Below, one piece after another: positions 23,281 through 43,783 of a stretch of DNA of 64,000 nt. This DNA comes from Bacillota bacterium (GTDB lineage Bacteria > Bacillota > JAAYKD01): NCBI GenBank assembly GCA_963666425.2, contig OY762825.2, forward strand, positions 1,408,001 to 1,472,000. The letters run 5' to 3'. The first letter of the stretch is position 1; each line of letters begins with the position of its first letter. The translations under genes were made by a program, and so were the position numbers. Below the pieces are notes generated by a model that had not been told where the DNA came from, made no database searches, and saw only the letters and a program-made list of their open reading frames with translations.

Positions 23281-24555
23281 TCAATCCTTCAAGCATCCAA
23301 TCGGAACTACATACACCCCATCTGCGCGACGAAATGCAAAATCGCCTGTCCCAGTCAGTATCATCAAGAAGGAAGGTTCTTTCATTTTTTTCGTATCGAT
23401 CAACCTTTGAATTTTTTTTAATGTCGTCACTCCATACTCAATAGCGCTGTCTCCTCCCAGTTTGATCTCAACCAACCCATAGGACCCGTTTCTTAAATGC
23501 ACAACGGCATCGCATTCCAAACCATTCTTGTCACGGTAATGGTAAACAGATCCATCCAATGCATCCGCAAATACACGTAAATCTCGAATACACAAATTTT
23601 CAAACAGCAAGCCGAATGTATTCAAATCATTAATCAAATCGTTCTGTCCCAACCCCAGTGCTGCAGCGCCAATTGACGGATCGGTAAAATACCTGGTATC
23701 GGCTGTCCTGATTGCTGTTTTTGAGCGAAGATTCGGATTCCACGCAGGCATGTCCTCCACTACAAAAATCTTCTTTAAGGCATTCTGATAGGAATATGCT
23801 GTTGCATTAGAAAACTCAGTGCCCTCATTTGCGGCCATGTCTTCACAAATTCCTGTAATAGGCGTTTGTGTACCGAGATAGCGAGAAGAGGAGCGTATAA
23901 AACGCTTGACCCGTTCTGGGTTTTTGACAACACCATCCGCTCTGTTAATATCAGAACGAACAACTGCTTCATAATAGTCTATTGCCTGGGATAGCGCAAT
24001 ATCCTCTTCCATTTCACATGCTCTCGGCCAGCCACCCCGACAAGTTAGAAATGCGATGTCTTGTAGCGTCAACTTGTTTCTACCAATTATTTCATCAGGT
24101 GCTTGAAACAATTCTCTTAGGCTGACTTCTCCCGTAGATTCACCGGATTCATAAAGGCTCATAGGCCGCATCAAAAGCCAGGAGAATCTTCCAGTTCCGG
24201 TGTGATGAATTAAATCTGTATCAACCGGTGTAGCAGAACCTGTTAATATGAATTGCCCCATCTCATCACGGTGGTCGACCGTAAATCTGATTGCATCCCA
24301 CAGTTTAGGAGCAAGCTGCCATTCGTCAATCAATCTAGGAGAATTGCCTTCCAGCAAAAGTGCCGGATTGATATCGGCTAATTGCAGGTTTTGTTTTTCG
24401 GTTTTCGGATCATCCATATACAGGATACTTTTCGCCACCTGCTCTGCCGTTGTTGTTTTCCCACACCATTTAGGACCTTCTATCAGTACGGCCCCTTTCT
24501 CTCTTAATTTTTTATACAGAATCCGGTCAACAATTCTGGCTTTGTATTGTTTCAT
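23281..24555 (-). CDS. AAA_14 ATPase with DUF4143 domain
   Basis: GPKWCGKTT, LIDEWQ, ILTGS, GGWP, FTDPS, FENL, YHYRDKNGLECDAV...VEIK (PD-(D/E)xK-like C-terminus); GGAGG RBS before MKQYKAR. Confidence 0.9.
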   Translation of the reverse strand: MKQYKARIVDRILYKKLREKGAVLIEGPKWCGKTTTAEQVAKSILYMDDPKTEKQNLQLADINPALLLEGNSPRLIDEWQLAPKLWDAIRFTVDHRDEMGQFILTGSATPVDTDLIHHTGTGRFSWLLMRPMSLYESGESTGEVSLRELFQAPDEIIGRNKLTLQDIAFLTCRGGWPRACEMEEDIALSQAIDYYEAVVRSDINRADGVVKNPERVKRFIRSSSRYLGTQTPITGICEDMAANEGTEFSNATAYSYQNALKKIFVVEDMPAWNPNLRSKTAIRTADTRYFTDPSIGAAALGLGQNDLINDLNTFGLLFENLCIRDLRVFADALDGSVYHYRDKNGLECDAVVHLRNGSYGLVEIKLGGDSAIEYGVTTLKKIQRLIDTKKMKEPSFLMILTGTGDFAFRRADGVYVVPIGCLKD

Positions 24556-24589
24556 TGCAACCTCCGAATAATTATGTGATGATGCAACT

Positions 24590-24618
24590 ATTATACACTC
24601 TATGGGAAAAAGAATCAA
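24590..24618 (-). promoter_or_regulatory. Sigma-A promoter of the AAA-DUF4143 gene
   Basis: TTGATT-17 bp-TATAAT on the minus strand. Confidence 0.7.
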
Positions 24619-24628
24619 CGACATTTAG

Positions 24629-24707
24629 ATAGTTGGCGCATATTTACTTTGATAGTTGGCGATTAATCACTTGTATAGTTGGCGCATATTTACTTTGATA
24701 GTTGGCG
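24629..24707. repeat. Four direct repeats with exact 23-bp period (core ATAGTTGGCG)
   Basis: Core at 24629, 24652, 24675 and 24698; units 1 and 3 are identical (ATAGTTGGCGCATATTTACTTTG). Confidence 0.92.
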
Positions 24708-24870: not shown

Positions 24871-26343
24871 TTAACGCACACTCACTACTGGTTTTATCAC
24901 GAATCCCCTAATAATTTTTGTAATGAGAGCATTTGGTTGTTGGTCCTCATCACCGCAGAGGATATCAAAGACCCGTTCTAAGACTTTCTTTTGTTCAACA
25001 GTAATGTTTGTTTGCAGATTCAATGCCTTGTATTTTGTCCTTGACTGCTGTGCACCAATGAGTATGTCAAGAGCCGCCACCAGTTCCGTGTGGTTTACTT
25101 GCTCCGTTTCAGCTTTATTCATCAATGTTACCTCAGGCATAACAACAGCGATTGTAGATTCGATATCAGGCTTAGTTTCGTTTTGAGCGAACTCAATGAT
25201 CCTCTGCGCCTTTTTATCTGAACTTCTTTGATTGGAGGTTTTCCTTATTTCGGAAGTTATATCGTCCGCCCAAGTCCGCAGTTCAATAATCATCGCTGAG
25301 TAGGCCGCATTTTTCTCCATCTCGTCCCGTCGTGCATTGGGTATCAACTTGTCAGATAGAATGTGAAGTTCACCAAGCAGCCACCCGTTAAACCGCTCAT
25401 CTTTGAACACGTGATTCAAAGTGGTTCTGTCCCCAATAAGAATATTGCCTTTTCTCACACGAAGTCCTTTGATTGCCTCGTCTTGCAAGGTGCCATAAAA
25501 ACTCGTTCTCGCATACCAAAGGTAAGCTACAGTTTCACCTTCATAGCTGAAAACCTTTGTTTCAACTTCAGAGATGTTATCTTCGAGTTTTCTGAGACGG
25601 TCTGAAATTACGGTGTCATGATATGCTTTCAAAATAGGGGCGCTTGTATTGCCATCGCCCACAAAAATATTATAACTTGATGGGTTGAAGCCATAAACTT
25701 TCAATTTTGATTTGATAATCTTACCCCAACCAAAATCTCTATCGAAATCAACCGGTGCAACTTGCTCAAGGTATTCCCGAACTTTGTCCACATCCAATAT
25801 GTCGTCAGTGCCTCCGACCCCTGTCATTATGACACTGAAGTAGTGTTTTGTCCGTGCCTCTTGTTCGACTTTGATCGTCACCACGTCTGAGATAAGCGAG
25901 ATCAGGTCAATATCAATATTTTCGTTGAGCATTCGCTCGCAAAGGGTTTGGGCATCAAATTCAATAACCGTCCGCTTGTCTTCGCCGACAGCGGAGGTCT
26001 CGAAAATCAATGTGTTGCAATATGCCAATCCTGCCAAGCGCCCAATTCCTCGAAAGCCTCGCGCATTTGTAAATCTTTTTGGAGAACGGCCAATATCCAA
26101 CAGATACTTGACAGCGTAATCAACACCTATACCAGTGCCGTTATCGGATATCCGTATAGACCGTCCCTCTTTGTCAATCTTGAGGTTGATTCGAGTCTCG
26201 GCCGCTTTTATCAGATTTGAAGACACGGCAATGTCAATAGAATCGACAGCGTTCTGAATGTATTCGCGGTATATGTCTTTCGGACTCTCATACATTCCCG
26301 ATGTTAGGGTTTCGAGTGTGAATTTTCCTATCGTGATTTCCAC
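24871..26343 (-). CDS. GHKL (HATPase_c_3) MORC-like ATPase, copy 2
   Basis: REYIQNAVDS (N-box), DNGTGI (G1), GFRGIGRLAGL (G2), LIPNARRD; GTG start at 26343 after AAGGAGG, 1 bp after the upstream stop. Confidence 0.85.
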   Translation of the reverse strand: MEITIGKFTLETLTSGMYESPKDIYREYIQNAVDSIDIAVSSNLIKAAETRINLKIDKEGRSIRISDNGTGIGVDYAVKYLLDIGRSPKRFTNARGFRGIGRLAGLAYCNTLIFETSAVGEDKRTVIEFDAQTLCERMLNENIDIDLISLISDVVTIKVEQEARTKHYFSVIMTGVGGTDDILDVDKVREYLEQVAPVDFDRDFGWGKIIKSKLKVYGFNPSSYNIFVGDGNTSAPILKAYHDTVISDRLRKLEDNISEVETKVFSYEGETVAYLWYARTSFYGTLQDEAIKGLRVRKGNILIGDRTTLNHVFKDERFNGWLLGELHILSDKLIPNARRDEMEKNAAYSAMIIELRTWADDITSEIRKTSNQRSSDKKAQRIIEFAQNETKPDIESTIAVVMPEVTLMNKAETEQVNHTELVAALDILIGAQQSRTKYKALNLQTNITVEQKKVLERVFDILCGDEDQQPNALITKIIRGFVIKPVVSVR

Positions 26344-26344
26344 T

Positions 26345-28357
26345 TTATTTGACCTCCTTACGGTAAATTTTCTGCAGCAGGACAATAATTTCTTCGATTT
26401 TATCGAGTATAACCTCACCTGCAATTTCATCTGCGTTTTGCTCTCGCAAGGCTTCCCTCAGTTGCTTTGACTTATGGTATAGGCGATCTTCAATTTTCTT
26501 TTCATCGCATTCAAGGCCTAACCTGAGTATATTCTTCAACTCTGTATCTGAGATTGCGTTAGCTGTTCGATATCGCAAGGCAATATCCAAACTGCGGGTG
26601 TCCAGAACTACCTTTTTCAAATCTTTTTGAGCCTTATACAAAGCATCGAAGACATTCGTGGTAAAGTATGGCTCCTCTATAAAGGCACGAATAACATCGG
26701 TGATAAAAACCGTTCCTTGGAGTGTAAGCATTCCCTTGAGGCAAGAAAACCGAGTATGCTCCGAGCGAATTACATACCTTAGAAGTTCAATATATAACAT
26801 AGGTAACTCAACTTTAACGTATATGAGCATCTCGATACCCAACGTCTCAATGTTTCGCAGAATACTAAGATACGAAAGGTTGTGAATGAACATCTTACGG
26901 AGCGTCGAAGTATTTGCCCGTTCGTAGTTATCCATTGAGAAGGAATTATCTTTAATGAGTTCCAAATAGTTTATGTAATCGTCACCCAGAGAACGGTAAA
27001 GTCTTATCCACTCGTCAATTCGGCCATGATTGACCTCCCAATGGGCGTAGCGTTTCTTTCTGTCTTCATTAGATTCGTTGATGCGCTCCACAAAGTGTCC
27101 GCGAAGGCCCAGAAGGTCTTCCGGCATAGCTAGATTTTCAATGAATTCTTCGGCAGTTGTGCCAAAATCTGCTTCAAAGAACGAGCGGGTGGATACGCCT
27201 TTTCCTTGCGTTGGAATCAGCATCCGCTGCACGGCACGGAGGTATTTTTTATTCCAGTGCGTACCGACAAAAGATCTATCTGTAGCGTTAAGCGGTATAT
27301 ATTTCATCGGGAAAGAGAATATATGCACCTTCCCGCTGCTTCCATATTTAGCGTTTAGTTCGTCGCAGAAATCCATTGAAATTTTCATGCGGTTAAATAA
27401 ATCCTGCGGTGTATCAGCATGGTAATACTGACCCTTGCCCGTAAAATCTTCCCCATTATAAAGGATATAGTTCGATAAATACTTTATACCGTTCTTGGCA
27501 CAGAGTTCCAATGCTCTTTTATACTGCTTCTCGTCTTCAATATGATCAAACGCTATCCGGGCAGGGCTAATCGCCAACTCACCGAGCCGCTGTGCTTTAT
27601 GCTCGTTCAACAGTTTGGCATCCAACCCTTGGTTAAAGTCAATGTAACGTTGAAGAGGTTTCCCAGTGTGCGTGCTTGGATAGGTACAACCTTTTCCGAA
27701 GCCTAATTCTTTCAGTTCGTCAACAATGCGGTCGAACTGATTTGAGCGTAGTACATTATTGTCCATCAAAAGCAAATTGCGTTTTGCACCGAAAAGACTA
27801 TCCACCTCAGCGATTTGCTCGCGAATTGAGATATATGGCACATACTCAGGCTCAAGGGTCTGCACGGCACAGAACTGGCACTTCATTCCGCAACCGCGTG
27901 TCATATAAAGAAAATAAGCATCAGTTGCCGGGTACTTATAATCGACATCGTCAAGAATGTCATAGTCTGGAGTCAGGCGGTCGATGCAACTTTCATCGCG
28001 CAAGCCAAAGGTACCATTGCGATTTAATAAACCCTTAATAAGGTTAATCTTCGGAAAAGTCTCCATAAACAGTTCAGGCATAAGGGTGGCCATAATACCG
28101 CCAACGAAAACCATATGCCTATCCTTAACGACAGCAAAAGCATATTCAATGCTCTTTTTGGTTTCTTTCCATTCAAAGGTAAACAGCGTCGAAACATAGA
28201 CCCTGTCCCATCTTTTTTCTGCCAGTTCATCTGGTAGTTTTCCTTTAGCGAATACTACACAGTCACCTAATCGTTTGTGGAAAGTTGATATCTTCATTAA
28301 CCCCAAAGGCGGATATTTATTTGCGTAATTTGGCTCTATCAGTAGAATGTCCTCCAT
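26345..28357 (-). CDS. Radical SAM protein with N-terminal B12-binding-like domain and helical C-terminal extension
   Basis: TRGCGMKCQFC (CxxxCxxC); N-terminal LLIEP..YPPLGLMKISTFHK..GD, STLFTF, VGGIMATL; LMDNN, DFNQGLDA, RIAFD. Confidence 0.85.
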   Translation of the reverse strand: MEDILLIEPNYANKYPPLGLMKISTFHKRLGDCVVFAKGKLPDELAEKRWDRVYVSTLFTFEWKETKKSIEYAFAVVKDRHMVFVGGIMATLMPELFMETFPKINLIKGLLNRNGTFGLRDESCIDRLTPDYDILDDVDYKYPATDAYFLYMTRGCGMKCQFCAVQTLEPEYVPYISIREQIAEVDSLFGAKRNLLLMDNNVLRSNQFDRIVDELKELGFGKGCTYPSTHTGKPLQRYIDFNQGLDAKLLNEHKAQRLGELAISPARIAFDHIEDEKQYKRALELCAKNGIKYLSNYILYNGEDFTGKGQYYHADTPQDLFNRMKISMDFCDELNAKYGSSGKVHIFSFPMKYIPLNATDRSFVGTHWNKKYLRAVQRMLIPTQGKGVSTRSFFEADFGTTAEEFIENLAMPEDLLGLRGHFVERINESNEDRKKRYAHWEVNHGRIDEWIRLYRSLGDDYINYLELIKDNSFSMDNYERANTSTLRKMFIHNLSYLSILRNIETLGIEMLIYVKVELPMLYIELLRYVIRSEHTRFSCLKGMLTLQGTVFITDVIRAFIEEPYFTTNVFDALYKAQKDLKKVVLDTRSLDIALRYRTANAISDTELKNILRLGLECDEKKIEDRLYHKSKQLREALREQNADEIAGEVILDKIEEIIVLLQKIYRKEVK

Positions 28358-28360: not shown

Positions 28361-29992
28361 TCAAGCCCTCCCACTTTCTTCGAAATCCAATTCATACAAG
28401 TAGAATCGCGCTCTCGTTTGCGCCGTGTAGAGGGTGGCACGGACACTTACGGTTTTCGGCTCGTTCTTGTATGTATGGTTAATATAAATCACGACATCCG
28501 ATTCAAGCCCTTTGAAACTCTGTATAGTCCTATAAGCTATTGATTCTGCGTCGGGCAAAATACGCTCATCACTGAGATTGTGACCGCTGACAAAGGCAGT
28601 TTCACTCAGGATAGAGTTTTCCTTCTTTCGATTGCTCAGAATAACTATCTTCTGTGCAGCGACACCTTCTCTATTAACCAACTTGTTAATAACAGAATCA
28701 ATGAATGCTACGGCTTGCGCTTTCCGTGTGAACTTTCGACAATCAGGTTCAACGCCCTCAATCTGATTAGCGATAGTGTCCAGATCTAAATTCGTCTGCT
28801 CTTGGGTATACCGAAGTATGTTCGCAGTGTTCCTGATGTTATAGCGAAGCACAAACGACGGCACATCGATAAAAAATTTTTCCCCAAAATTTCGCTTGAA
28901 AATGTTTTGGTTTTCATCGTAAAACACATAGAGCGAGCCACCGTCTTTCACCATCAAATTGGCGCAAAAAGCCCAATCCTCGGTAAAGTCCTGCCCCTCG
29001 TCAACAACTACCAAGTCATATCTTTGAAGGTTCGGCAAACCGCCTATGAGGCTACTATATTCCTTGTTGCCGTTTCGCTCAGGTGCAGTTGCGGCTTTAT
29101 CCCTGAGAAGCGAATACGCGTATGAATCAATGTTGTGGCAGTCGATATGGGGGTAATTAATAATTGATGCCACGGTATCGGCTAATGCTTTGTTGTAGCA
29201 AAGATATAAAGCATTACCTCCGCCTTGCACACAGCGGATAATTTTTTTGATTCCAATCCACGTCTTGCCCGTCCCAGCACCGCCGACAACAAACGCTTTG
29301 GGATAGTGCGTTAACAAGTCGATGACCGTGTCCTGTGTCCTGTTAATTTCGAGTAGTTCACGTTCTTTCTCCTGAATCAGTGCACCCGCTGAAATAGATA
29401 GGGCAATGCGCTTGTTAACCACGCTTATAAACTTCTTTTGGGCATCCGGGGACAGAAATGATGTCCCACCACGTCGCTGATTTCGAAAGAAACGGAAAAT
29501 CTCAGTCACTCGTTTTTGAAGGCTGTTCATCGCCGAAAGGTCAATGGTGGTTTCCATTGGCGATCCGACAGTAATCGGCGAGTTGATTGTGTAGTTGGGA
29601 TACGCCACCGCACATCCATATATGCCTGAAAATTGTGTCTCAATCTCGTCCTCATAGTATTTCTTAAAGAAACGCATACTCTGCTCAGCTTGGTCATATG
29701 GGGAACGCTTGAGCTTGCGTTCGCCATCGTGGTCGATCATATACCATACATTGTCCTCAACCCGCATTCCTGTGCCGCCTTTAACTTCAACGCAAAGGAA
29801 CCCATAGTCAGGGTTGAAAAGCAGGAAGTCACATTCACTATCCTCTCTGATGCCGTTGTTTGTAGAGTACCATCTGACTGAATAGAAAACATGATACTTA
29901 TCTGATAACTGCTCCTTGCAGGCATTGAAAAATTTCATCTCTGAGTAGGCGTGGTAGGCTTCGGGTATTTGAACGGGGTGCATAATAGCCAT
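28361..29992 (-). CDS. NERD nuclease fused to SF1 (UvrD-like) helicase
   Basis: SE...ECDFLLF...LCVEVKG (NERD catalytic residues); GGAGTGKT, VDEGQD, YDENQ, NIRNT, FKGLE, YTAQTRA. Confidence 0.85.
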   Translation of the reverse strand: MAIMHPVQIPEAYHAYSEMKFFNACKEQLSDKYHVFYSVRWYSTNNGIREDSECDFLLFNPDYGFLCVEVKGGTGMRVEDNVWYMIDHDGERKLKRSPYDQAEQSMRFFKKYYEDEIETQFSGIYGCAVAYPNYTINSPITVGSPMETTIDLSAMNSLQKRVTEIFRFFRNQRRGGTSFLSPDAQKKFISVVNKRIALSISAGALIQEKERELLEINRTQDTVIDLLTHYPKAFVVGGAGTGKTWIGIKKIIRCVQGGGNALYLCYNKALADTVASIINYPHIDCHNIDSYAYSLLRDKAATAPERNGNKEYSSLIGGLPNLQRYDLVVVDEGQDFTEDWAFCANLMVKDGGSLYVFYDENQNIFKRNFGEKFFIDVPSFVLRYNIRNTANILRYTQEQTNLDLDTIANQIEGVEPDCRKFTRKAQAVAFIDSVINKLVNREGVAAQKIVILSNRKKENSILSETAFVSGHNLSDERILPDAESIAYRTIQSFKGLESDVVIYINHTYKNEPKTVSVRATLYTAQTRARFYLYELDFEESGRA

Positions 29993-29994: not shown

Positions 29995-31884
29995 TTAATC
30001 CTCCCAGAAACCTGACAGCTTCTCTTGCTTCTGCTTGTCGAAATATCCGCAGAGGTAGCCTCGGTCTAAATCTTTATTGAAGTGTTGGCATGATACTTCG
30101 TTTAGGAACAAGCAACCTGCACAAGCTTTTTCTTTATCGATGCAGATTGGGTCAAAGATGCATTTCTTTGAGCGGTCTTTCGCGTATTTCAACCAACGGT
30201 CAAAATGCGATTGAAATGCGCTGTACAATGCTCCCATATTGAAACCTTGCGAGTTCGAGCAATAAACGAACACTGCAGGAATGTTTGGCAAAATGTATTC
30301 CGAAAGTGAACTCTTGTCCAATCCGCATATTTCCGATGCTTCGTTTATCAATGCGTGAGATATACTGTGTATCAGGGTATAAACCCTCTTCGTAATTACT
30401 CCATATGTGTCGGTTTCATCGATTGACGTAAAAAGAGTTATACGGTCTAGACGAATACGGTCTAGAAACCACATTTTAATACCGTAATCACTCATATCCT
30501 GCGGAAAGTCTTCATTTTGAATCAACTTATTGTCCAGCAGCCAGTCTAGAACCTTTCGGCGGTCGAGTTCGAACAATACACCTTCGGTTTCTAGACGTGT
30601 AGCGTAGATGTTTTTCTTCTCCATCTCTTGTGGGAAGCCATGTAGCTTAACACCTTCTTTACATTCTCTTTCTTTGCGGGTGTAACCATATGCCGCAAAG
30701 ACGATGGGGACGCCAGAGCACATCTGAACATTGGAGAATCCCAGTGTCTTGGAAAGGACGACATAGTCTGGCTTGATGCCGTCATTGACGATTTCAGCGT
30801 CACATTCGGCATCCTCAAGTGACAGGACAACTTTCGCACGAACAAGCTCGTCGTACTCAAGAATCTCTTCGGCAATCGGCTTGATATCATCAGCACTTAC
30901 GACTGAGAGACCTTGTCCGACACGTTCGATGGCTTCGAAAACTTTCCCGCTTGGGTTTACCCGACGCTTAGCATCTAACACCATAGTAATAGTGGCTTCA
31001 TCCAGGCCGCCAATGCGGAGATTGTCTGCTTCTTTTTGCAAAGCTGTTTCAAACTCATCTTCTTGGGTGACATTCCCCTTTGCAATGATTCCTGCGTATT
31101 CATCTTGCGGTATCAACCCCAAGTATTGGGCGATAACAACTTTTTCGCCGCGCCTATCTTCCTCATTATCTAAGAACACATCTTTCCGCTTATCAAGAAG
31201 GTCAATGAGCGAAAGAGTAAAAGGAAAATAGTGTGATGAATCCAGTGCCGGTTTGATATCGAGCTTTGATTTGCACACAGGGCAATAGAATGGAATGTCT
31301 GCTTTCTGTCCACATTTCGTACATACGAAATCAATTCCGCTGCCGCGACGGGTCATATATTTTGTGCCGTGTTCTTTATTATGGCATTTTGGGACGAAGA
31401 TTCCATCTGCGTATCCACACTTGCAAAAGCGAATCATCCTTAGTTGGGTCATGTGCTTTCCGCACACATCGCATGGCTCGTGTTCGCGGCGTTTGAATTC
31501 TTCGTAGCTATAATATTGCCTTACACGTCCACAGGAGCTGCATACAAACACCCAAGGATTAACCGATGTAACAATGGCTCTTTCTTGCTCGCTAACCTTT
31601 GGAGTCAGCACATAGTAGTTTTCCTCGTTTATAACCGTTGAGAAGTTGACAATGGACGCTGCTCCATCAGGACTTCCGCTTTTGAATTCGCTAACACGCT
31701 GATTCACCACACGCAACAGGCGCTTGTTGTTGATGTCTGTCAAATGAACGCTGTTCCAACGGTCAACATGAACAGCATAGGTGAGACCACCGCCGCTTTG
31801 AGTAAAGTCCACCCAACTTCCGGGCAAATACTTATACAGGGCTTGGCGAACCCCACGACTCATTGTATTCTTGTCAGCTGGCAT
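29995..31884 (-). CDS. DUF1998 (MrfA-like Zn-binding) protein, DISARM DrmB-like
   Basis: Several CxxC pairs; YGYTR, TEGVLF, LIHSISHALI, SLSEYI and C-terminal CIFDPIC...ACAGC...EVSC..FN..LDR. Confidence 0.85.
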   Translation of the reverse strand: MPADKNTMSRGVRQALYKYLPGSWVDFTQSGGGLTYAVHVDRWNSVHLTDINNKRLLRVVNQRVSEFKSGSPDGAASIVNFSTVINEENYYVLTPKVSEQERAIVTSVNPWVFVCSSCGRVRQYYSYEEFKRREHEPCDVCGKHMTQLRMIRFCKCGYADGIFVPKCHNKEHGTKYMTRRGSGIDFVCTKCGQKADIPFYCPVCKSKLDIKPALDSSHYFPFTLSLIDLLDKRKDVFLDNEEDRRGEKVVIAQYLGLIPQDEYAGIIAKGNVTQEDEFETALQKEADNLRIGGLDEATITMVLDAKRRVNPSGKVFEAIERVGQGLSVVSADDIKPIAEEILEYDELVRAKVVLSLEDAECDAEIVNDGIKPDYVVLSKTLGFSNVQMCSGVPIVFAAYGYTRKERECKEGVKLHGFPQEMEKKNIYATRLETEGVLFELDRRKVLDWLLDNKLIQNEDFPQDMSDYGIKMWFLDRIRLDRITLFTSIDETDTYGVITKRVYTLIHSISHALINEASEICGLDKSSLSEYILPNIPAVFVYCSNSQGFNMGALYSAFQSHFDRWLKYAKDRSKKCIFDPICIDKEKACAGCLFLNEVSCQHFNKDLDRGYLCGYFDKQKQEKLSGFWED

Positions 31885-31896: not shown

Positions 31897-34800
31897 CTAT
31901 TTCATCTCAACGATGAGTTGTTTGTCAGTGTCTCGAAGGCTCAACATAACTCGGAAATAGCAATGTTTGAAAACTTCTGTGATATACAAATTACCGTCAA
32001 GCGAACTATTTTTCAAAGCATCAACCAACTGGTCAATCAATCTGTCAATTGTCTGACGATAGAGCTTTCCAACCGCACTATCACCATCGGAACACTTGTA
32101 AACGCCGTAAGCATGTTTCTTCAATTCTGCCGCTGTAATCTTATCTGCTAGAAAAGCCAACTTGAGGTTCGAATACTTGCTGATATCGCTCATACCTGCC
32201 TCATATTTCAGCAAGTACAGGTAGTAGTTGAGAATCAAACTTGAGATAACGCCTGGCAAAGTGCTCTCAACTGATTTTGTTGCCCATCGGTTAATAGAAA
32301 CCGAGTCTACAAGGATATCTTTATACTCGTGAAACTTAATAAAGTTTTTTAGATAGCTTTGGTCTTTTTCACGTGATGGACGCATAATGTCGATAACCAA
32401 ACCAGTGTACTTTCTGCCGACACGCGAGTAAGCTTGAATATATTCAGCTGTATTTCCGGGTATTCCATAGAAAAGCATCAGGTTGAACCTATCAGCATCC
32501 ACGCCATGAGAAATCATACTGGTAGCAGCAATCATATTGAAATCAATACCATCTATCATGCTCTCGGCGTGTTCGATGGTTGAAAGCGTAGCCCTTACCT
32601 CCTGGAATGTATCATCACCAGTCATCTTCTTAGCGATGAGCGGTTGAACACCTTCATCAATTAGTTCTGTATTGATAGGGTCTTCCAACGCTTGAAGTAC
32701 TCGGTTGCTTTCAAGTTTGACATTGTTGTATTCAAGAATAATCCAATATTCTTCCAATAACCGCTTAACCTCTGCTGTCTGCTCCTCTTTTGAGCCTATG
32801 ATTTCAATTCCCGTAAAAGAGAGAACCAATTGAGGGTTAGAATAAAGATTCCAGACTACCCGTTTCAGATATTGTAACGAGTAAGCAACGCTATTCACGA
32901 TTGCTTTGCCGAATGGTGCATATCCAATAATGATTCTGCCAATGTCCTTCATGTCAATGAACGAATAGAAGTTGTGATCAAGGTAGGGAGAGGCAGCAGG
33001 AAAGCGAATTGAACCTTTATAATACAAATGCTTAGCTTGTTCAGCGTAAGCAGAAATTGTAGCAGTTGCCCCGATTACCTTTATTCCTCTGTTACAGCCC
33101 GACAAAACCTTGATAAAATACTCAATTAGGGTTTCGTAATGGGAGTCATATGCTCCCAATGACTCTCTGATAAGATGCAACTCGTCCTGAATCATCAGCG
33201 TTGGTGCGGGGTCCTTCATCGACACTTTTTTGTAATCAGCAGGGTCACATTGACAACCGTATACCAGACATTTTGTCTTTGAAGTAAACCCATGCTTTGG
33301 ACATTCGAAATCTGCTCCGAACAGGAAGTTGTGAAAGTTCGAATTAAATCCGAGCGCCGTCATCTTATCCACGGTGGAAATAATTACGGAGGGCAAGTAT
33401 CTGTATATATCGTTATCCACCATATAGAGCGGAATAACACCCCGTGAAGCACACTCTGAATTACTGCAAATGTGCCTTAAACAATTGGCCTCGACATCAT
33501 AAACCACATGAACGGTTTCCTGCCCACAGAACGGACAAACATCTATCAAACGATATTTCGCGTCCATCTCGTCTGGAGAAAGCTCAAGCAATGTACTTTG
33601 AAGGTCTTTATCGATATTATTCGGCGTATTGCCGTCACCAACATAATATCCAAGGCTGAACGGACTACCCCCCAGTTCTTTTGCTTGGCGTATTACCTCG
33701 GCAGTAGCAAGTATGTTAGCGACACGCTGAACCTGTTGTACAGATAGCAAGCGGAGCGGATACTTCAACATCGCAGTAACGCCATAATTCTTACCACGTA
33801 AGCGGTCAAAGAACAAATTAAAAACGAGAATACCCAAAAACGCCTCTGTTTTACCACCGCCAGTTGGGAAATATAGGATATCAACATCATCAGTTTTGGC
33901 TTTGCTTTTGATATCATCATCGAGCATTAGGTCTTGCTCGTGTGCCACGACATCAAGAATCAACGAAACGATAAAGACAATCTGAAATAAACGCCAACTG
34001 TCATAACCTTTACTCTTAGCGGAATCCCTGAAGGATTGATTCATATAACAAAAAGCGTCACTGAGCATATTGTGTTTACTGAGCAGTTCAATGCCTGTGG
34101 CAAACCGCGTCATTTCCAAATTAAAAGCCGCAATCTCATTGCCGAACTGTCGCACACCATTCGGGGTAAGAAAACTGCGCCTTTGTTCAAAATCAGCCAC
34201 CCAACGCCTAATTTCATTTTGCATCTGTACGTGAATGCCTTTTAGAGTTTTAATCGGTTCAGTAATCAGGTCGTCAAATTTGATTGCCATTTTATCGTTC
34301 GTCTTTAAGCGATACTGAACATAGTACGGCACATGGGTTGTCTGTATCTCGACATTGTGCATGTCATATGACACATTGCAGTTATTGCCAAGGGCATAAA
34401 CGAATCTATCGTATTTATAATCGTCGGCGAAATAGTCCAGTTCAATTGGGACAAATTCTGTGTCAATGCATCTAATCTTTATGCCAGAATTGAACAGAGT
34501 GGCTATTCTGTATTTGTCTGTCTTTGCTGAAGACTGCCCAAAACCCGCACTTTCGTCGCTCCAAGGTGTCTCGTTGCTTAGTGCGACGGTCACATTAAGG
34601 TGATCACCGCTTCCTTTCAAATCCACACTCAGAGAGTAATCAAAACGAAGGAACATGTCAAATTCCTCGCGAGTCTGTTGCTTCTTGATATAAGCCTGCC
34701 AATTTTCCTCGGTAATCAAGTCATCAATCTTAAGTTTATCCCTAAACTGACACTGCATAATGTTTGGGCGGGCTTTTGCCTCTGCGCAAAGAGCCTCGAC

Positions 34801-35352
34801 TTGCCGCTTAATCTCTTTATAAAACGGAGAATCTCCTGGTACACTTCCGCACTCAAACGTGGGATTGTAGATGTCTGCAATTTTCACTTCAACGAAAAAT
34901 TTTCCTCTGTCGATGGCAATCTTCTCATAAATTGGTAGAAGCTGAACCTTGTGGGCTTGCATCTCCGAAGTTAATTTGCCTGTGCTGAACGCTTCAGTAA
35001 GTGCAAAAAAGTCGGCAAACTGGGGTTCGGTGAATGTTGCTATAAAATTCTTCAGAAAAAATTCCCGCTGCTGATCAAGAACCGGCAAAACCCTAAAGAA
35101 AAAATTACCCTGCGGATAGATCTGCAATACAGCAGTGCCAATATCCTTTTGGGGGATTCGGAAGTCTACACTTATTTGTTTAATCAGCACGCTCGACGAA
35201 AAACCATCCTCTGCACTTTGCGGAGATAGCTTACCAACATAGATGCGGTCTTCGGGACTGTTGAACAACCACTGTTCCTTGTCTGTGCCAGAAATCGCAT
35301 CTACAAACCTATCCATGATGTTCTCTGCCAAAATTTCTCTATTGTTATGCAT
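31897..35352 (-). CDS. Large SF2 DEAD/DEAH-box helicase, DISARM DrmA-like
   Basis: WRLFQIVF, YFPTGGGKTEA, YPLRLLSVQQ, STVDK, IQDELHL, ATATI, ATSMISHGVD, YIQAYSRVGR. Confidence 0.88.
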   Translation of the reverse strand: MHNNREILAENIMDRFVDAISGTDKEQWLFNSPEDRIYVGKLSPQSAEDGFSSSVLIKQISVDFRIPQKDIGTAVLQIYPQGNFFFRVLPVLDQQREFFLKNFIATFTEPQFADFFALTEAFSTGKLTSEMQAHKVQLLPIYEKIAIDRGKFFVEVKIADIYNPTFECGSVPGDSPFYKEIKRQVEALCAEAKARPNIMQCQFRDKLKIDDLITEENWQAYIKKQQTREEFDMFLRFDYSLSVDLKGSGDHLNVTVALSNETPWSDESAGFGQSSAKTDKYRIATLFNSGIKIRCIDTEFVPIELDYFADDYKYDRFVYALGNNCNVSYDMHNVEIQTTHVPYYVQYRLKTNDKMAIKFDDLITEPIKTLKGIHVQMQNEIRRWVADFEQRRSFLTPNGVRQFGNEIAAFNLEMTRFATGIELLSKHNMLSDAFCYMNQSFRDSAKSKGYDSWRLFQIVFIVSLILDVVAHEQDLMLDDDIKSKAKTDDVDILYFPTGGGKTEAFLGILVFNLFFDRLRGKNYGVTAMLKYPLRLLSVQQVQRVANILATAEVIRQAKELGGSPFSLGYYVGDGNTPNNIDKDLQSTLLELSPDEMDAKYRLIDVCPFCGQETVHVVYDVEANCLRHICSNSECASRGVIPLYMVDNDIYRYLPSVIISTVDKMTALGFNSNFHNFLFGADFECPKHGFTSKTKCLVYGCQCDPADYKKVSMKDPAPTLMIQDELHLIRESLGAYDSHYETLIEYFIKVLSGCNRGIKVIGATATISAYAEQAKHLYYKGSIRFPAASPYLDHNFYSFIDMKDIGRIIIGYAPFGKAIVNSVAYSLQYLKRVVWNLYSNPQLVLSFTGIEIIGSKEEQTAEVKRLLEEYWIILEYNNVKLESNRVLQALEDPINTELIDEGVQPLIAKKMTGDDTFQEVRATLSTIEHAESMIDGIDFNMIAATSMISHGVDADRFNLMLFYGIPGNTAEYIQAYSRVGRKYTGLVIDIMRPSREKDQSYLKNFIKFHEYKDILVDSVSINRWATKSVESTLPGVISSLILNYYLYLLKYEAGMSDISKYSNLKLAFLADKITAAELKKHAYGVYKCSDGDSAVGKLYRQTIDRLIDQLVDALKNSSLDGNLYITEVFKHCYFRVMLSLRDTDKQLIVEMK

Positions 35353-36424
35353 GACTAGACCACCCCTTTTCGCTGAGCCGCTTGTGGACGAATTCAGATT
35401 TCAATCCAAGGTTCGAGATAAGCTGTTCGTAAATCCAGCAGTAGACCTCTTTACTTATAATGTCACCATACATTTGAAGAATGCTCAGGGCTCTCAACAG
35501 TTCAGAATAGCTACTGATGGTACAGACTATTTCATTGGCGTTATCATGAATCAAGTCAGCGAAATGTTGGTCAAACATAATAAACATTTCATCAATTCTG
35601 AGCCAGTTTCGAAAGTGGTCTGAGCCAGCTACTTCAGATAGCCAAATTAGCTGAACAGCATTTTTGCAACTTTCAATGGAGAGGTAATTCGATTCGATTT
35701 CTGACAGAATGATTTTCCATCGTTTGAACTTTTCTCGTTCTTCATCATCATGCGCCTTTGCTATGACAAAATCTAAATACCCACAATAATCATTTTCCAG
35801 CTCAAAGTTTTTTTCACCCATCTGAATAGAATTTTCTTCAGGAGTTGAATTTATATGGCTATCAGCAGGTGTAGTGAGCTTTCTGGATATTTGATTTGCG
35901 CTATCATCTTTTGTGAATACGGCATCTTCTCCATCATCCAAATCCAACGGCTCGCCCGTAAAAAGCGTAGGGGTACTTACAATTCCCGACCCATATATTG
36001 TTTCTCCACAGATAATTGCTTTTTTGCTTTCAGCAGTGCTATCAATATCAAGAGTCTGAGCAATAAGAATGCTTCCTTCAGCAATAATGGTTTTTGCCTT
36101 GAGCGCTTGTGCTGTTATTCTACTGTTGGTTTCAATGCTTATCGCTGTAATTTCCTCCGACCATATTTCATCATAAACAATAATAGTGTCAGCTTTACAC
36201 TTACCCATACAGAGAAATCTACCCTTGACATCAATTTCGTTCGCTTCCAAGTCGCCAACGACTATTAAATCAAAAAGAGCCGTTATCTTTCCTTTACACT
36301 TGATGTTGGATGCAACAATGTAACTGGCTTTGAATGTCACATCGTCACAATCTATGCAATATGGTAGAATAAATCTCCCGTCTGACGCAACTATACCTAT
36401 GGTCTTGTCATTGTATGTTGTCAT
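35345..36424 (-). CDS. Hypothetical protein with bactofilin/polymer-forming-like beta-helix N-terminus and helical C-terminus
   Basis: Short repeats of hydrophobic-x-hydrophobic-x-Gly (NIKCKGKI, LIVVGDL, IDVKGRF, IIAEGSI); overlaps both neighbouring genes. Confidence 0.6.
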   Translation of the reverse strand: MTTYNDKTIGIVASDGRFILPYCIDCDDVTFKASYIVASNIKCKGKITALFDLIVVGDLEANEIDVKGRFLCMGKCKADTIIVYDEIWSEEITAISIETNSRITAQALKAKTIIAEGSILIAQTLDIDSTAESKKAIICGETIYGSGIVSTPTLFTGEPLDLDDGEDAVFTKDDSANQISRKLTTPADSHINSTPEENSIQMGEKNFELENDYCGYLDFVIAKAHDDEEREKFKRWKIILSEIESNYLSIESCKNAVQLIWLSEVAGSDHFRNWLRIDEMFIMFDQHFADLIHDNANEIVCTISSYSELLRALSILQMYGDIISKEVYCWIYEQLISNLGLKSEFVHKRLSEKGWSSHA

Positions 36425-38405
36425 TGGTTTTTACCCCCTGCATTGATTGTCTAATCAAATCCATATATATTGATTCACCCTTCGGAGCAGAGAGTATAAT
36501 GGTTAATTCATCTTTTGCTCTCGTACAGCCAGTATAAATAAGGTTAATGTTCATTTTGAATGCTTCAAGCTTATCAGGCAATTGTTCCTGAGTGGCCGAT
36601 TTAAACTCTGTCAGTGTTCTTGTTTTTTCGTGTGTTCCCAAAGGCCTTAATCCAGCCAACACAACTGCCTTGAAGTCGAGCCCAAGAGCACCTTCGATTG
36701 AAACAACCGTAACGCCTCGCCGAGACCCGTAGGTTACGCCTTCAGATTGACCTTGATATAAAAACGCCGGTGTTTCCCACCCATGATTGTTGAAGTATTG
36801 AATAATATACGGTCTAAGTTTGTAATAATGTGTTTGCCAACCCCTTGTCGTGTATTTAGCATTTTCATTAAAAAGAATAATGGCTATATCAACTTCGCTT
36901 AGGCCTTTATCATTGATCAGGCACTCGATAGCATCCCCAATGGCGTTTGCTTCCCCAATGTTGCTTAACTCGCTCAATTCAACCAATATAGGTGCATTGC
37001 CGGGTCTAAAAGCAGTTCCGCGCAAGAATAATTCAGGGTCAGAGGTTAGGTCGATACCTAAATTTGAGCCCAATTCCTTCGCCACCGAAACATATCTATC
37101 TATGGCATCATTAATTGGCTTAGAGTTGCGATAATTCGTCTCAATTGGAAGAGTTTTACCTCTGTATTCAGGGTATGTGTCACCCCCACCTTGCCAAGGT
37201 GCTTTGCTACGTTTAATGTTGTTTTTTACATCTTGCGATTTGTCACCGGCGATGACAAAAAAATGATCATCTGCTCTTTTGCTTTTAAGCAGGTTAAAGC
37301 AGAAGCGATACCATTCTGGTTTGAAAATCTGAATTTCATCAATGAAGATTCCGCAGAATCTCTCTTTGATTCTGCCTTGCGCTAGCGCGTTATTAGCCAC
37401 TTCAAACAATCTATCGTAAGAGTCGTTTTGATCGTGATGGTTAGCCGAGGGAAGCGGTATACCATTGCTCTCCAATAACGATTTACATAAGGAGAAAAAA
37501 GTTGAGCAACGCACATTTTTATTCATGAATCCTGCTTGGGCTATTGCCCAAGTATAGTAGTTGTTAAGATTTCTGTTGTAGCAAGTGATGAGAAAGTTTT
37601 CGCTTGGATTAAGGCTTGCCAGTTTGAAACATTTGGAAATGAGCAACACGCTTTTCCCACTGCCTGCACAAGCAAGAATAAGTTGGTTGCCCTTAGCGAT
37701 CTTGTTTATGATTTCAATTTGTTTGCTATCCAAGCGGTAAGACTGTACGGCTCTGTCCGTTGAACCTAAAGCTCCATCTGTGCCGGGCATGGTGTTGTTC
37801 TCGTCCAGGATATATTTTCGCGGTATCGTGATTTCAGGGCAAAGCCTCTGAAACACGTTGTTAATTTGGTCTTCCTGAAGTTCATCAGCCTCGCCTAAAT
37901 AGTTCTTGACCGCATCTGCACCTTCTTTGCGAATCTGTGCTATGGTCTCTTTGAAAAGTACGTGATTGGAGCAAAACTGACGTTCACTTTCATCAAGGCC
38001 AGATGTCACTTGACTTTCGTCAGCTTTCGGAAATACAAAGCAAATATTAAGCTCAAACCGTAGTTTACCCGACGGATCAGTGAGGTAACGACTTTCTTCA
38101 AGTCTTTTTGCGATATCACTTCTAAGCATTCCGTACACGGCAGGGTTGCCCAGCGCCTTGATGGCCATCTGTGCTGCAGCATCTAGTACTTCAATAAAGC
38201 GAAACAAGAGTATCCCTTTGTCGACGAGTAAAAGATTGAATAGTTCAGGTTTTCCACCACCTGCATCCTTTTTGCGCGGGTTTATGTGCAGTACATAATA
38301 CGCCAACTTCTCACTGGAAAAAGCCCGCTCAACTGTCCGCAGGAATGATTTTTCGTCAACTGGAAGTTCCAGCTGCTCGCTTTTTTCGGGATAGACTTGC
38401 ATCAT
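36408..38405 (-). CDS. SF1 (UvrD-like) helicase with degenerate NERD-like N-terminus
   Basis: ACAGSGKS, FIDEIQ, GDKSQ, TNYRNS, LGLDF, YTGCTRA. N-terminal PELFNLLLVDKGILLFRF aligns by eye to the NERD core but lacks D..ExK. Confidence 0.8.
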   Translation of the reverse strand: MMQVYPEKSEQLELPVDEKSFLRTVERAFSSEKLAYYVLHINPRKKDAGGGKPELFNLLLVDKGILLFRFIEVLDAAAQMAIKALGNPAVYGMLRSDIAKRLEESRYLTDPSGKLRFELNICFVFPKADESQVTSGLDESERQFCSNHVLFKETIAQIRKEGADAVKNYLGEADELQEDQINNVFQRLCPEITIPRKYILDENNTMPGTDGALGSTDRAVQSYRLDSKQIEIINKIAKGNQLILACAGSGKSVLLISKCFKLASLNPSENFLITCYNRNLNNYYTWAIAQAGFMNKNVRCSTFFSLCKSLLESNGIPLPSANHHDQNDSYDRLFEVANNALAQGRIKERFCGIFIDEIQIFKPEWYRFCFNLLKSKRADDHFFVIAGDKSQDVKNNIKRSKAPWQGGGDTYPEYRGKTLPIETNYRNSKPINDAIDRYVSVAKELGSNLGIDLTSDPELFLRGTAFRPGNAPILVELSELSNIGEANAIGDAIECLINDKGLSEVDIAIILFNENAKYTTRGWQTHYYKLRPYIIQYFNNHGWETPAFLYQGQSEGVTYGSRRGVTVVSIEGALGLDFKAVVLAGLRPLGTHEKTRTLTEFKSATQEQLPDKLEAFKMNINLIYTGCTRAKDELTIILSAPKGESIYMDLIRQSMQGVKTNDNIQ

Positions 38406-39937
38406 TATTTTTTTCCTCCCGACTTCAGTTCCTCTATGAATTCGCAGTACAGACTATCGACAGTCGCACGCTCAAAGTTGCGTGACAAAACTTCCATCAT
38501 CGCTTGTACAACCTTTTTCTCTGATTTTGAAAAGTTAGAAGGGATGTCCTTCTTCACTCTGAAGTTCGTTGATTCATCAACTTCATACGCAAGTGTGGTG
38601 AGCCGTTCCATTAGACCGTTTTTTTGCTCTACAACTTCAACAGGAGCATTTTTCGGAATAGCATATAGGTCGCGTCTTGTCGCGGCAAGTCCAGCTATAA
38701 CCTGTTCTTTTTCGGTGGCTGAATGAAATCCTGTAGTGAGAACTTCTTCAAACTTAGATACATCGTATTCAACCTTTTTGATCGTCTTTTGCATCGGGTT
38801 GTTTCTAACCTTGGATGCTGCACGGATTTTATCACTTATCTCCGTACCGATTGTTTCCCTTAAACCAATGGTAAACTCTGAGAAAGTTGTGCTTTTCTCA
38901 AAGTCGTCGCGGCGGGCATTCGGAATTAGGTTAGGAGAGACAACATAAACTTCACCAACCGCCCAACCGTTGAAACGGCTCTCTTTGTAGTAAGGAGCGA
39001 GGGTTCGTCCTCCACCGATAAGAATATTACCTTGTCGTAACCTTAACCCAGAAATACGCTCGTCAAACAGTGTTCCTGAAAAATCCGTGTTAGCGTACCA
39101 ACCGTAGGCAATCATATTCTGATTGCAATCATTTATTCTAAAGAAGGAGAGACTGAGGATTTCATCTTTCGTTACACCTGTACGTGAATTTGACTCAAAG
39201 GACACCTTATATGGCTTGTATACTTGAGAAAGAGATTCAAATGACTCACCTATAAAGACGGGGTATTCGGCAATAGTGATTCCGTTTTTCAACAACTCTT
39301 TTTTTATTTCTCGTTCCCAATAGAATCTGTCTCTAAAAGGTATAGGTGCAACCTGTGAAATATAGTCTTTGACCGTTTCTAAATCCAAGAGAGATGAAAT
39401 ATCGTCGACATCTTCCATTTTTACGATGAAGTAATGCGCCGATGACTGTTCCTGCATAATCTTGATTTCAGTGACGACTTCGATGACGCTCTGGAGATTA
39501 TATTCCGTGCTTTGACCCGGGACTAAAAGGGCTTTCAATTTCTCGCAATCAAAAGTAATAAGCGTCTTTTCGTTTTCACCTAATGCAGTAGTACAGAAAC
39601 TGAGCTTTTTACAATACGAAAGACCTCCAAGACGACCTATACCGCGAAAACCGCGATTTGTCGTATGTAGTTTGGTGGAATTACCGATATCAAGCAGCAT
39701 CTTCCTAACCAAGTCTTTCTTAATGCCTGTTCCATTGTCACGAATACTGATTTCCTGCTTTGTTCCATCAACGATTATCTCAATACGGAAGTGCTCTGCC
39801 TGTGTTAAACCTTCTGCAAGCGCAGTATCAAGTGAATCTACCGCGTTCTGAATATACTCTCGATAGCAGGACTCTGGTTCACTGTACATACCAGTAGTCA
39901 GCGATTCGAGAGTGAATTTACCGATTTCAATTTCCAT
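38405..39937 (-). CDS. GHKL (HATPase_c_3) MORC-like ATPase, copy 1
   Basis: IGKFTLESLTTGMY, REYIQNAVDS, DNGTGI, GFRGIGRLGGL, LIPNARRDDFE; GGAGG RBS. Confidence 0.87.
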   Translation of the reverse strand: MEIEIGKFTLESLTTGMYSEPESCYREYIQNAVDSLDTALAEGLTQAEHFRIEIIVDGTKQEISIRDNGTGIKKDLVRKMLLDIGNSTKLHTTNRGFRGIGRLGGLSYCKKLSFCTTALGENEKTLITFDCEKLKALLVPGQSTEYNLQSVIEVVTEIKIMQEQSSAHYFIVKMEDVDDISSLLDLETVKDYISQVAPIPFRDRFYWEREIKKELLKNGITIAEYPVFIGESFESLSQVYKPYKVSFESNSRTGVTKDEILSLSFFRINDCNQNMIAYGWYANTDFSGTLFDERISGLRLRQGNILIGGGRTLAPYYKESRFNGWAVGEVYVVSPNLIPNARRDDFEKSTTFSEFTIGLRETIGTEISDKIRAASKVRNNPMQKTIKKVEYDVSKFEEVLTTGFHSATEKEQVIAGLAATRRDLYAIPKNAPVEVVEQKNGLMERLTTLAYEVDESTNFRVKKDIPSNFSKSEKKVVQAMMEVLSRNFERATVDSLYCEFIEELKSGGKK

Positions 39938-40890: not shown

Positions 40891-40965
40891 ATACCGGAAC
40901 GTTATTCAACAAGGTTTACTTCTTTCATTCAACTCATATATTTGCATAGCAACTAACCAACAAAA

Positions 40966-41006
40966 AAAAATCCAATCAGAACATAAGCTGTTCTGATTGG
41001 ATTTTT
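40966..41006. terminator. Terminator duplicated with the transketolase 3' copy
   Basis: AAAAATCCAATCAGAAC / GTTCTGATTGGATTTTT; same arms as 44195..44235. Confidence 0.85.
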
Positions 41007-41035
41007 AGTAATATCGACTTTTTTTATCGACTATC

Positions 41036-41650
41036 TTACTTTCTCGCCAAGGCTTCCTTCGCCGCCTGCACAATGTGGGCAGTGGTCAAGCCGTATTTTT
41101 CCAGCAACGCGTCCGGTTTGCCGGACTCGCCAAAGGTATCGTTAATGCCAACTCTTAGCAGCGGAGCCGGGTATTGTTCGGCCAGCAATTCCGCCACGGC
41201 GCTGCCCAGGCCGTTGATAATGCTGTGTTCTTCTGCAGTCACAATGGCGCCGGTTTTCTGCACGGAGGCAAGGATGGTGGCACTGTCAAACGGTTTGATA
41301 AAGAGCACATTAATCACTTTGGCCGCAATGCCTTCTGCCGCCAGCAGATCGGCCGTTTCCACCGCATCGGCAGGCGCAATCACCACCATATTGGGAATGC
41401 CGAGCATCAGACCGAGATCTTCCACCGATTGATGAGTGGCGCCGTCTTCTCCCACGGTTAGTCTGGCGTGGGTGGCCACAATTTTTACGTTCATTTTAGG
41501 GTAGGCAATGGAGTTACGGATTTGGTCATAGGCACGTCCGGTCATAAAGATGGCAAAGGTGCTGATAAAGGGGGTCTTGCCGCTGGCGGCAAAACCGGCG
41601 GCGATGCCGGTCATATCGGCTTCGGCAATGCCGCAACTGAAAAAGCGCTC
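41036..41650 (-). pseudogene. tkt: Truncated, internally deleted copy of transketolase C-terminal subunit
   Basis: Matches 44283..45082 from ERFFSCGIAE onward. It lacks the N-terminus, has a 62-codon in-frame deletion, and carries substitutions in conserved motifs (THAG->THAR, LMRG->LMLG). Confidence 0.88.
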
Positions 41651-41680
41651 TATGTTAAGCGCACCACCGGTATGGAACAG

Positions 41681-43758: not shown

Positions 43759-43783
43759 TACAATCATCTCCATTTCAGAACCC

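Follow-up and report, generated by a model that had tools for sequence, protein, structure and literature searches.

What does a radical S-adenosylmethionine (SAM) enzyme do in the place where a DISARM operon would carry its DNA methylase? The question is raised by a 64,000-nucleotide (nt) stretch of a Bacillota bacterium (GenBank assembly GCA_963666425.2, contig OY762825.2, positions 1,408,001 to 1,472,000), hereafter the window. A radical SAM protein of 670 amino acids (aa), hereafter rSAM, is encoded there at 26345..28357 on the minus strand, with an ATG start. Its gene is the seventh of eight in an operon that runs from 39937 down to 24871 in the order GHKL ATPase A, UvrD-like helicase, a 359-aa unknown protein, DrmA, DrmB, NERD-UvrD helicase, rSAM and GHKL ATPase B. 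The genes overlap or are spaced by 1-12 nt. The defence operon is DISARM-like, its putative modification module is without precedent, and it would be categorically new if a DNA mark were shown. Our tentative answer, to which we give somewhat less than an even chance, is that rSAM and GHKL may constitute a self-marking DNA-modification module in the methyltransferase position of DISARM.

DISARM (Ofir et al. 2018) reportedly comprises DrmA, DrmB and DrmC plus a DrmMI or DrmMII methylase. The operon of the window resembles it in having a DrmA-like YprA helicase and a separate DrmB (DUF1998/MZB) in the same order, and in being a multigene operon within a defence island. In detail, the DrmA-like protein is a YprA-family superfamily 2 (SF2) helicase of 1151 aa (31897..35352; this and all other genes of the operon are on the minus strand), matched over its full length by PADLOC DrmA (PDLC02576, 1.8e-155). 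The DrmB-like DUF1998/MZB protein of 629 aa (29995..31884) is matched by PADLOC DrmB (3.4e-52) and Pfam MZB (1e-5). Both remain below the NCBIfam cut-offs, with 358.9 bits for DISARM_DrmAS (cut-off 950) and 84.5 bits for DrmB_fam (cut-off 240).

A methyltransferase domain is absent, according to Pfam, from the 11 island open reading frames (ORFs) scanned, that is, those of at least 150 aa excluding the ones nested antisense in a larger ORF. The intergenic gaps are too short for an extra methyltransferase gene in the operon. The preliminary description of this locus, which had placed a radical SAM enzyme where DISARM has its methylase, is thus borne out. PLD nuclease or DrmC, as well as DrmD/DrmE, gave no match among the island ORFs in Pfam and PADLOC, and a NERD nuclease domain is present instead of the former. 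Lacking a methyltransferase, a PLD nuclease and DrmD/DrmE, the operon is therefore not canonical DISARM. It also differs in its additional genes, which are the two GHKL ATPases, two UvrD-type helicases (one with NERD), the unknown protein and rSAM.

The rSAM protein consists of a B12-binding-like N-terminal domain (N-domain, residues ~1-135), a radical SAM core (~136-430) and a C-terminal extension (431-670). The core is recognized by Pfam Radical_SAM (PF04055) over residues 151-304 with 35.4 bits, the cut-off being 29.5 (E 1.6e-8), and the same family is found in 36 of 40 relatives at E ≤ 0.01. The CxxxCxxC motif, noticed already in the preliminary description, corresponds to C156-x3-C160-x2-C163 and is invariant in 40/40 relatives and in 14/14 sequences that include phage forms. 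Further invariant polar residues of the family are E169, D199-N-N201, D240-F-N-Q243, D246, R267, D271, R323 and W368, all of them retained by the short phage forms. Judged from its sequence, rSAM is a genuine radical SAM enzyme, and its family is large, unnamed and represented among phages by PHROG 9298 (phrog_9298, 'radical SAM domain protein', matched by rSAM at 7.3e-40).

An exhaustive phmmer search retrieved 1423 cluster representatives (clusters at 50% identity) at E ≤ 1e-3 and 219 at E ≤ 1e-30. Many of the relatives are full-length, with ~670 aa, and their source labels read just 'radical SAM protein' or 'hypothetical protein'. Conservation within the family spans residues 1 to ~425, and the C-terminus is variable or missing.

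The rSAM protein matched 0 PADLOC families at E ≤ 0.01 and no informative NCBIfam model, and phmmer against solved structures gave 0 matches at E ≤ 1. In profile searches of the solved structures the best E was 0.043-0.05, none significant, and the nearest proteins were RimO, MiaB and TM_1862 (E 0.043-0.54, again none significant). Comparison by hhalign with the genome's own proteins returned a probability of 34% for its B12-rSAM-like protein and 55% for its MiaB-like protein, neither of which is decisive. A methylthiotransferase of the MiaB/RimO/MtaB kind was considered and is excluded by the lack of a second cysteine triad and of a TRAM domain. In detail, no invariant or near-invariant cysteine other than C156, C160 and C163 occurs in the 40-sequence alignment, Pfam detects no TRAM domain, and the NCBIfam RimO model gives 15.4 bits where 356.95 are required.

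The C-terminal extension has no Pfam family and no Atlas cluster match. The preliminary description had called it long and helical; the extension itself is real, and its helicity is consistent with a Pro+Gly content of 3.7%, as compared with 11% in the core. It diverges far faster than the core (e.g., 70% vs 39% and 25% identity). This divergence is counted in favor of a modification module, because specificity and docking domains behave in this way.

A B12-binding-type N-terminal region and a dependence on cobalamin had also been proposed, and the two claims fared differently. The match of PF02310 (B12-binding) to residues 15-99 reaches 17.5 bits (E 0.0038; 20.2 bits in another scan) and remains under the cut-off of 32.1. 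The same family is found at E ≤ 0.01 in 11 of the 40 relatives, with 1.6e-8 as the best value, and a phage homologue (L036) clears the cut-off with 33.0 bits. Homology of the N-domain to B12-binding domains is thus supported by its relatives, even if the match of the window protein is subthreshold.

Cobalamin dependence is not supported. Besides the subthreshold match, the 305-aa phage forms possess all catalytic-core residues with only ~90 residues ahead of the cluster, that is, a remnant of the N-domain, and in one relative (P0244) an HNH region replaces this domain. Because of this truncation and replacement, an obligatory cobalamin-dependent methylation is not favored. The likeness of rSAM to class B radical SAM methyltransferases lies in a Rossmann-type B12-binding-like domain followed by the radical SAM core and in the weak PF02310 matches. 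It differs from them in the points just given, and the solved class B enzymes showed no sequence match at E ≤ 10. The host encodes CobS and three bona fide B12-binding domains, and cobalamin may be available in it. Cobalamin-dependent C-methylation would be one option among several, and not a favored one.

The rSAM gene is tightly coupled to its neighbors, as previously proposed, and the coupling is translational. The stop codon TGA of the NERD-helicase gene lies 3 nt ahead of the rSAM ATG, and the rSAM stop codon TAA is followed after 1 nt by the GTG of GHKL ATPase B (490 aa from GTG at 26343; 24871..26343), with the Shine-Dalgarno sequence AAGGAGG 8 nt upstream. This GTG is the start used in the orthologues. 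HATPase_c_3 is above the Pfam cut-off for both GHKL proteins of the operon (6.2e-8 for GHKL B). In GHKL B the residues E27, N31, D67-N-G-x-G71 and G96-F-R-G-I-G101 are invariant among 23 sequences, so that the ATP-binding motifs I-III are all present.

The association of rSAM with GHKL is conserved far beyond the window, and nearly all of the long rSAM forms have a GHKL ATPase as neighbor. Among all loci collected in the analysis, which include 115 uncut rSAM ORFs, a GHKL gene is located within 3 kb in 44 cases, with a median rSAM length of 672 aa, and is absent from the other 71, with a median of 316 aa. A natural rSAM-GHKL fusion exists (P0152), one relative carries an N-terminal SAP DNA-binding domain and another has an HNH region. 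In the phylogenetic tree of 89 dereplicated sequences, all GHKL-linked forms are grouped in one clade (SH-aLRT, the Shimodaira-Hasegawa-like approximate likelihood ratio test, 98). Within it, a subclade of 670-690-aa proteins contains the DrmAB, SNF2 and Pbe contexts intermixed (SH-aLRT 99). The pair has therefore been exchanged among partner modules, and rSAM with the downstream GHKL is a portable two-gene module.

The loci fall into at least four types according to their partners. The DrmAB type, to which the window belongs, includes 21 loci with GHKL and one without. DrmA, DrmB, the NERD helicase and rSAM follow each other in the same order in 18 of 27 related reference-genome loci, and the block is collinear in 20 of the 27 if two loci cut at DrmB by a contig end are counted. 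The nine loci of the SNF2/ParB type present a ParB-like gene, a small ORF, an SNF2 helicase, a second ParB-like gene, rSAM and GHKL. Their SNF2 partner resembles ZorD, DpdE, DrmD and BrxH, with ZorD as the best PADLOC match. In the ten loci of the mad8/HerA-like type, a ~400-aa unknown protein and a ~560-aa mad8/HerA-like ATPase precede GHKL and rSAM.

The Pbe type occurs with GHKL in two loci, composed of a ~1000-aa protein, PbeA, PbeC, a ~150-aa protein, rSAM and GHKL, and without GHKL in five. PbeA and PbeC are recognized at 3.8e-218 and 2e-188, respectively. The ~150-aa protein corresponds in position and size to PbeD, the DndE cognate of 152 aa, and has no Pfam or PADLOC match.

A second rSAM-GHKL system is found in the genome of the window itself (L149, G000:C1:2004000-2023900), immediately downstream of HsdM-HsdS-HsdR, a type I restriction-modification system. 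Its rSAM of 681 aa is 50% identical over 574 residues, its GHKL has 514 aa, and both are preceded by ParB-like, SNF2 and ParB-like genes. Another genome of the same family (G096) contains an operon of the rSAM type and a separate DrmA/DrmB locus (L179, G096:C7:20100-40000), in which the genes flanking DrmA and DrmB resemble C5 and N6/N4 DNA methylases at the BLAST level. In one locus of the mad8-like type (L041:9740-11940), rSAM is followed by a match to a TIR-like effector and by a ThsB-like TIR protein (PADLOC ThsB 7.2e-69), which are either a neighboring Thoeris-like element or an added effector.

The DrmA/DrmB operon, the second system next to restriction-modification genes, the PbeA/PbeC, SNF2/ParB-like and mad8/HerA-like partners, and the copies in prophages and phages agree with the earlier claim that the context is one of defence and not of metabolism. 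A metabolic B12-type radical SAM enzyme merely stranded in the island was considered as well and is rejected by the conserved collinear operon and by the swapping of modules.

The hosts are mainly Clostridia, with additional metagenome-assembled genomes labelled Planctomycetales, Spirochaetales, Synergistales and Nitrospira, and a Runella. In a sample of 401 genomes from the phylum, 25 have a member of the rSAM family, a patchy spread that is typical of mobile defence genes. A close DrmA orthologue occurs in 2 of the 401, both with rSAM, which are too few for inference.

Relatives of rSAM are also encoded by phages. In a profile scan of IMG/VR, at least 495 of 568 candidate stretches encode one, among the matches listed. 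Of 79 loci kept from this database, 17 have long forms linked to GHKL, the carriers being probably prophages or other mobile elements, and 61 (39 groups at 80% identity) have short forms. Within two ORFs of the short forms a DNA methylase is found in 4 of the 39 groups, a large terminase in 6, a portal gene in 2 and replication or recombination genes in 9. Methylases also adjoin rSAM in L103 and in the prophage-like L160 and L165. In Oscillospiraceae phage NatCom_21982 the start of rSAM overlaps the end of a DNA methyltransferase gene. In LoVEphage, a split Dam methylase follows rSAM after two short genes; a PAPS reductase and a C5 methylase are encoded further upstream, and an RtcB RNA ligase gene lies a few genes away.

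Homologues are present in 17 of 50,697 deposited phage records, among them those of the cultured Bacteroides/Phocaeicola phages LoVEphage, PV4-TP1 and BI-TP1. The hosts in these records, Bacteroides, Phocaeicola, Clostridium tetani, Methanomassiliicoccales, Oscillospiraceae and Marinitoga, are anaerobes.

Some of the phage loci have particular arrangements. In a viral contig (L040:6468-10962), an rSAM of 510 aa lies between a gene for a uracil-DNA glycosylase (UDG)/3'-5'-exonuclease and one for a family A DNA polymerase, as though it had entered a polymerase and split it in two, and a Dam methylase and a clamp loader then follow. A phage-like contig (L093:7902-10250) has tandem rSAM paralogues of 394 and 384 aa between the portal and head-protease genes of a head-morphogenesis block. 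As to nucleotide metabolism, NT5C is a neighbor of the orphan in L091 and a small second radical SAM gene of that in L054.

The reading of rSAM and GHKL as a module that may mark self DNA is based on the modification position, which is occupied by rSAM in several unrelated architectures, and on the phage orphans, as is the case with methylases. The argument is one by analogy, in that relatives of at least three of the partner modules (DrmAB, Pbe and SNF2) are known from systems that distinguish self by DNA modification. The earlier proposal of a modification enzyme in the position of the methylase has thus acquired comparative support. A relation to DNA is also seen in the SAP and HNH domains of single relatives and in the phage orphans, which occupy replication and packaging regions and in some cases adjoin methylases.

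According to this reading, a dimer of the GHKL ATPase would clamp or scan the host DNA and rSAM would dock through its fast-evolving C-terminal domain. The [4Fe-4S] cluster of rSAM, together with SAM, would generate a 5'-deoxyadenosyl radical and thereby a noncanonical mark on DNA. Invading DNA without the mark would then be the target of DrmA/DrmB and of both UvrD-type helicases, of which one bears the NERD nuclease. In phages of anaerobes, the short orphans would likewise place the mark on phage DNA. DNA as the substrate, a protective self-mark as the product and all of the chemical detail are proposed here in the same conditional sense.

A wider and more doubtful form of this proposal, which we consider possible though clearly short of probable, concerns the anaerobes in general. 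A mark made by C-H functionalization (of base, sugar or backbone, and distinct from ordinary N- or C5-methylation) could be the self-label of their DrmAB-, Pbe-, SNF2/ParB- and mad8-type systems, written by the portable rSAM and GHKL cassette. The phages of anaerobes (Bacteroides, Clostridium, Methanomassiliicoccales and Marinitoga) would then carry stripped-down orphans as counter-defence.

Several observations weigh against a DNA-marking module. One locus of the DrmAB type (L001) has no downstream GHKL, and many of the 'viral contigs' with GHKL-linked forms may be prophages or mobile elements and not free phages. The link with orphan methylases, modest at 4 of 39 groups, is suggestive only, as phage methylases tend toward that genome region anyway. 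For Zorya, the system of ZorD, no use of DNA modification is known to us. No nuclease is recognized in the SNF2/ParB-like and mad8-like partner sets, and an effector role of rSAM is thus possible. Lastly, the nearest solved proteins RimO and MiaB, at a nonsignificant E of 0.043-0.4, act on protein and tRNA and not on DNA.

As an effector, rSAM would act after recognition by the GHKL and the helicases, its radical abstracting hydrogen from a sugar or base of foreign DNA and leaving strand breaks or replication-blocking lesions. This is unlikely in our estimate. Radical SAM enzymes such as spore photoproduct lyase do act directly on DNA, and, in addition to the partner sets without a nuclease, rSAM adjoins DNA-binding machinery and is fused to SAP in one relative. 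The operon of the window, however, already has the NERD nuclease, and the Pbe-type sets have PbeA, an HKD nuclease-helicase according to PMC10853773. Moreover, the phage orphans share the invariant residues and are situated where the phage genomes encode replication and packaging, a place for which a DNA-damaging enzyme would be ill-suited.

Still less probable is the synthesis of a small molecule during infection, either a viperin-like nucleotide that poisons replication or a signal that activates the helicase and nuclease partners. Prokaryotic viperins are radical SAM defence enzymes acting on small molecules. So is the three-gene Ophion (10.1101/2025.09.30.679545), a different radical SAM system composed of rSAM, PHP and PRTase, and the nucleotide-metabolism genes near some phage orphans (L091 and L054) point in the same direction. 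The viperin-like product envisaged in the preliminary description nevertheless finds no support: rSAM has no match of any kind in PADLOC, a collection that includes viperin models, one relative carries a SAP fusion, and the partners are DNA translocases. Of the partners, the constant one is a GHKL ATPase of the DNA-clamp type and the variable ones are the translocases, with no kinase, cyclase or nucleotide-binding sensor among them, and a fast-evolving C-terminal domain is unexpected in such an enzyme.

A small chance likewise falls to a macromolecule other than DNA, either the GHKL partner or another protein of the system, which would be matured or activated, or tRNA/rRNA. RimO, MiaB and TM_1862 as the nearest, if nonsignificant, solved proteins would fit such a substrate, as would the hhalign probability obtained with the MiaB-like protein, the natural rSAM-GHKL fusion and the RtcB gene close to the LoVEphage copy. 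The lack of an extra invariant cysteine and of a TRAM domain speaks against it, rSAM therefore being no methylthiotransferase. In addition, the phage orphans and the Pbe-linked short forms exist without GHKL, which therefore is not a universal substrate.

For the DNA-marking module there is a precedent in function, since a radical SAM enzyme takes part in phage thymidine hypermodification; the likeness concerns radical SAM chemistry in DNA base hypermodification. The steps of this pathway act on polymerized DNA (PMC5889632 and PMC8989533). It differs in involving several enzymes and starting from 5-hydroxymethyl-dU.

Among defence systems, a Tiamat-like 'Type III-C' neighborhood has been described with a GHL ATPase, a cytosine methyltransferase, GajB, DrmA and DrmB (10.64898/2026.09.30.754977). 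It shares with the operon of the window a GHKL-type ATPase, a GajB/UvrD-like helicase and DrmA/DrmB. In this comparison, made by description, it differs in its C5 methylase and helicase-fused ATPase, as against rSAM and a stand-alone GHKL here. For the Pbe and CxC-ABC-DndE systems, PMC10853773 and PMC6459918 describe an association with phosphorothioation genes or with C5/N4 methylases. The likeness to PbeABCD or CxC-ABC-ATPase-DndE is that relatives of rSAM, with or without GHKL, come directly after PbeA, PbeC and the PbeD-sized ~150-aa protein. The differences are that the operon of the window has no Pbe genes and that the accessible texts of PMC6459918 and PMC10853773 include no radical SAM partner.

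Prokaryotic MORC/paraMORC GHKL ATPases are encoded with SF2 helicases, nucleases and modification enzymes, and have been proposed to loop or clamp DNA (PMC2292703). The word 'radical' does not occur in that source. A preprint on YprA (10.1101/2025.09.15.676423) refers to 'many uncharacterized DISARM-like classes', without radical SAM in its accessible part. Full-text searches of the literature, with preprint supplements and most subscription papers outside their reach, found no link of a radical SAM enzyme to DrmA/DISARM, GHKL/MORC, DUF1998 or Pbe/CxC-ABC.

Even if DNA marking is wrong, the rSAM-GHKL pair is a widespread module of defence islands, with no description found in the literature searched. 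To our knowledge, every modification-based defence that is well understood labels self DNA through methylation, phosphorothioation or 7-deazaguanine insertion. If the proposal is true, it would signify a new natural modification of DNA by radical chemistry, limited to anaerobes and hence easily missed where the model hosts are aerobic. Restriction-modification biology would gain an enzyme class and a kind of epigenetic DNA mark that are both new, and there would be consequences for the host range of phages in gut and sediment communities and for the genetic tractability of Clostridia.

Of the remaining genes of the operon, the first, GHKL ATPase A (510 aa, 38405..39937; HATPase_c_3 6.1e-12), had no match in the PADLOC scan. 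Its ATP-binding motifs are invariant (alignment A3), and its gene is directly upstream of the UvrD-like gene in 5/5 related genomes checked. The UvrD-like superfamily 1 (SF1) helicase (665 aa, 36408..38405; Pfam UvrD-helicase 5.2e-7) is matched by the PADLOC NERD+UvrD model C3a187 (2.4e-24) and also by GajB models, and is collinear across related loci. The unknown protein of 359 aa (35345..36424) had no Pfam, PADLOC or PHROG match, and tblastn finds a homologue of it in 12 of 18 full DrmAB-type loci. The NERD nuclease with a UvrD-like helicase (543 aa, 28361..29992) is matched by Pfam NERD (9e-11) and UvrD_C_2, as well as by PADLOC RTasNERD-Hel (2.6e-64). A strong terminator is located just upstream of the operon (41006-40966), and no strong minus-strand terminator was found inside it.

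The operon is part of a low-GC island at ~22-44 kb of the window, with a GC content of 0.41-0.45 compared with 0.51-0.55 on either side and a minimum of 0.34 over the AbiE genes (42-44 kb). All large ORFs of the island are on the minus strand. The Rfam and tRNA scans of the window gave no matches.

The AbiE genes are an abortive-infection pair, AbiEii (353 aa, PADLOC 4.6e-130) and AbiEi (275 aa, 1e-79), at 41909-43836 of the window, with a GC content of 34%. The 3' end of a gene for the C-terminal subunit of transketolase is duplicated together with its terminator, at 40963-41797 and 44192-45236, with ~91% identity. The copy at 40963-41797 is truncated; the AbiE pair separates it from the other, and the eight-gene system is on its far side. 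This arrangement resembles the outcome of two insertion events, one after the other, that both hit the 3' end of this gene.

Just past the other end of the operon, an AAA_14/DUF4143 ATPase of 447 aa is encoded at 23281-24707 (PADLOC candidate PDC-S01, 1.2e-58), which is not kept in related loci. Three tandem repeats of 23 nt (24622-24707) are located directly upstream of its start.

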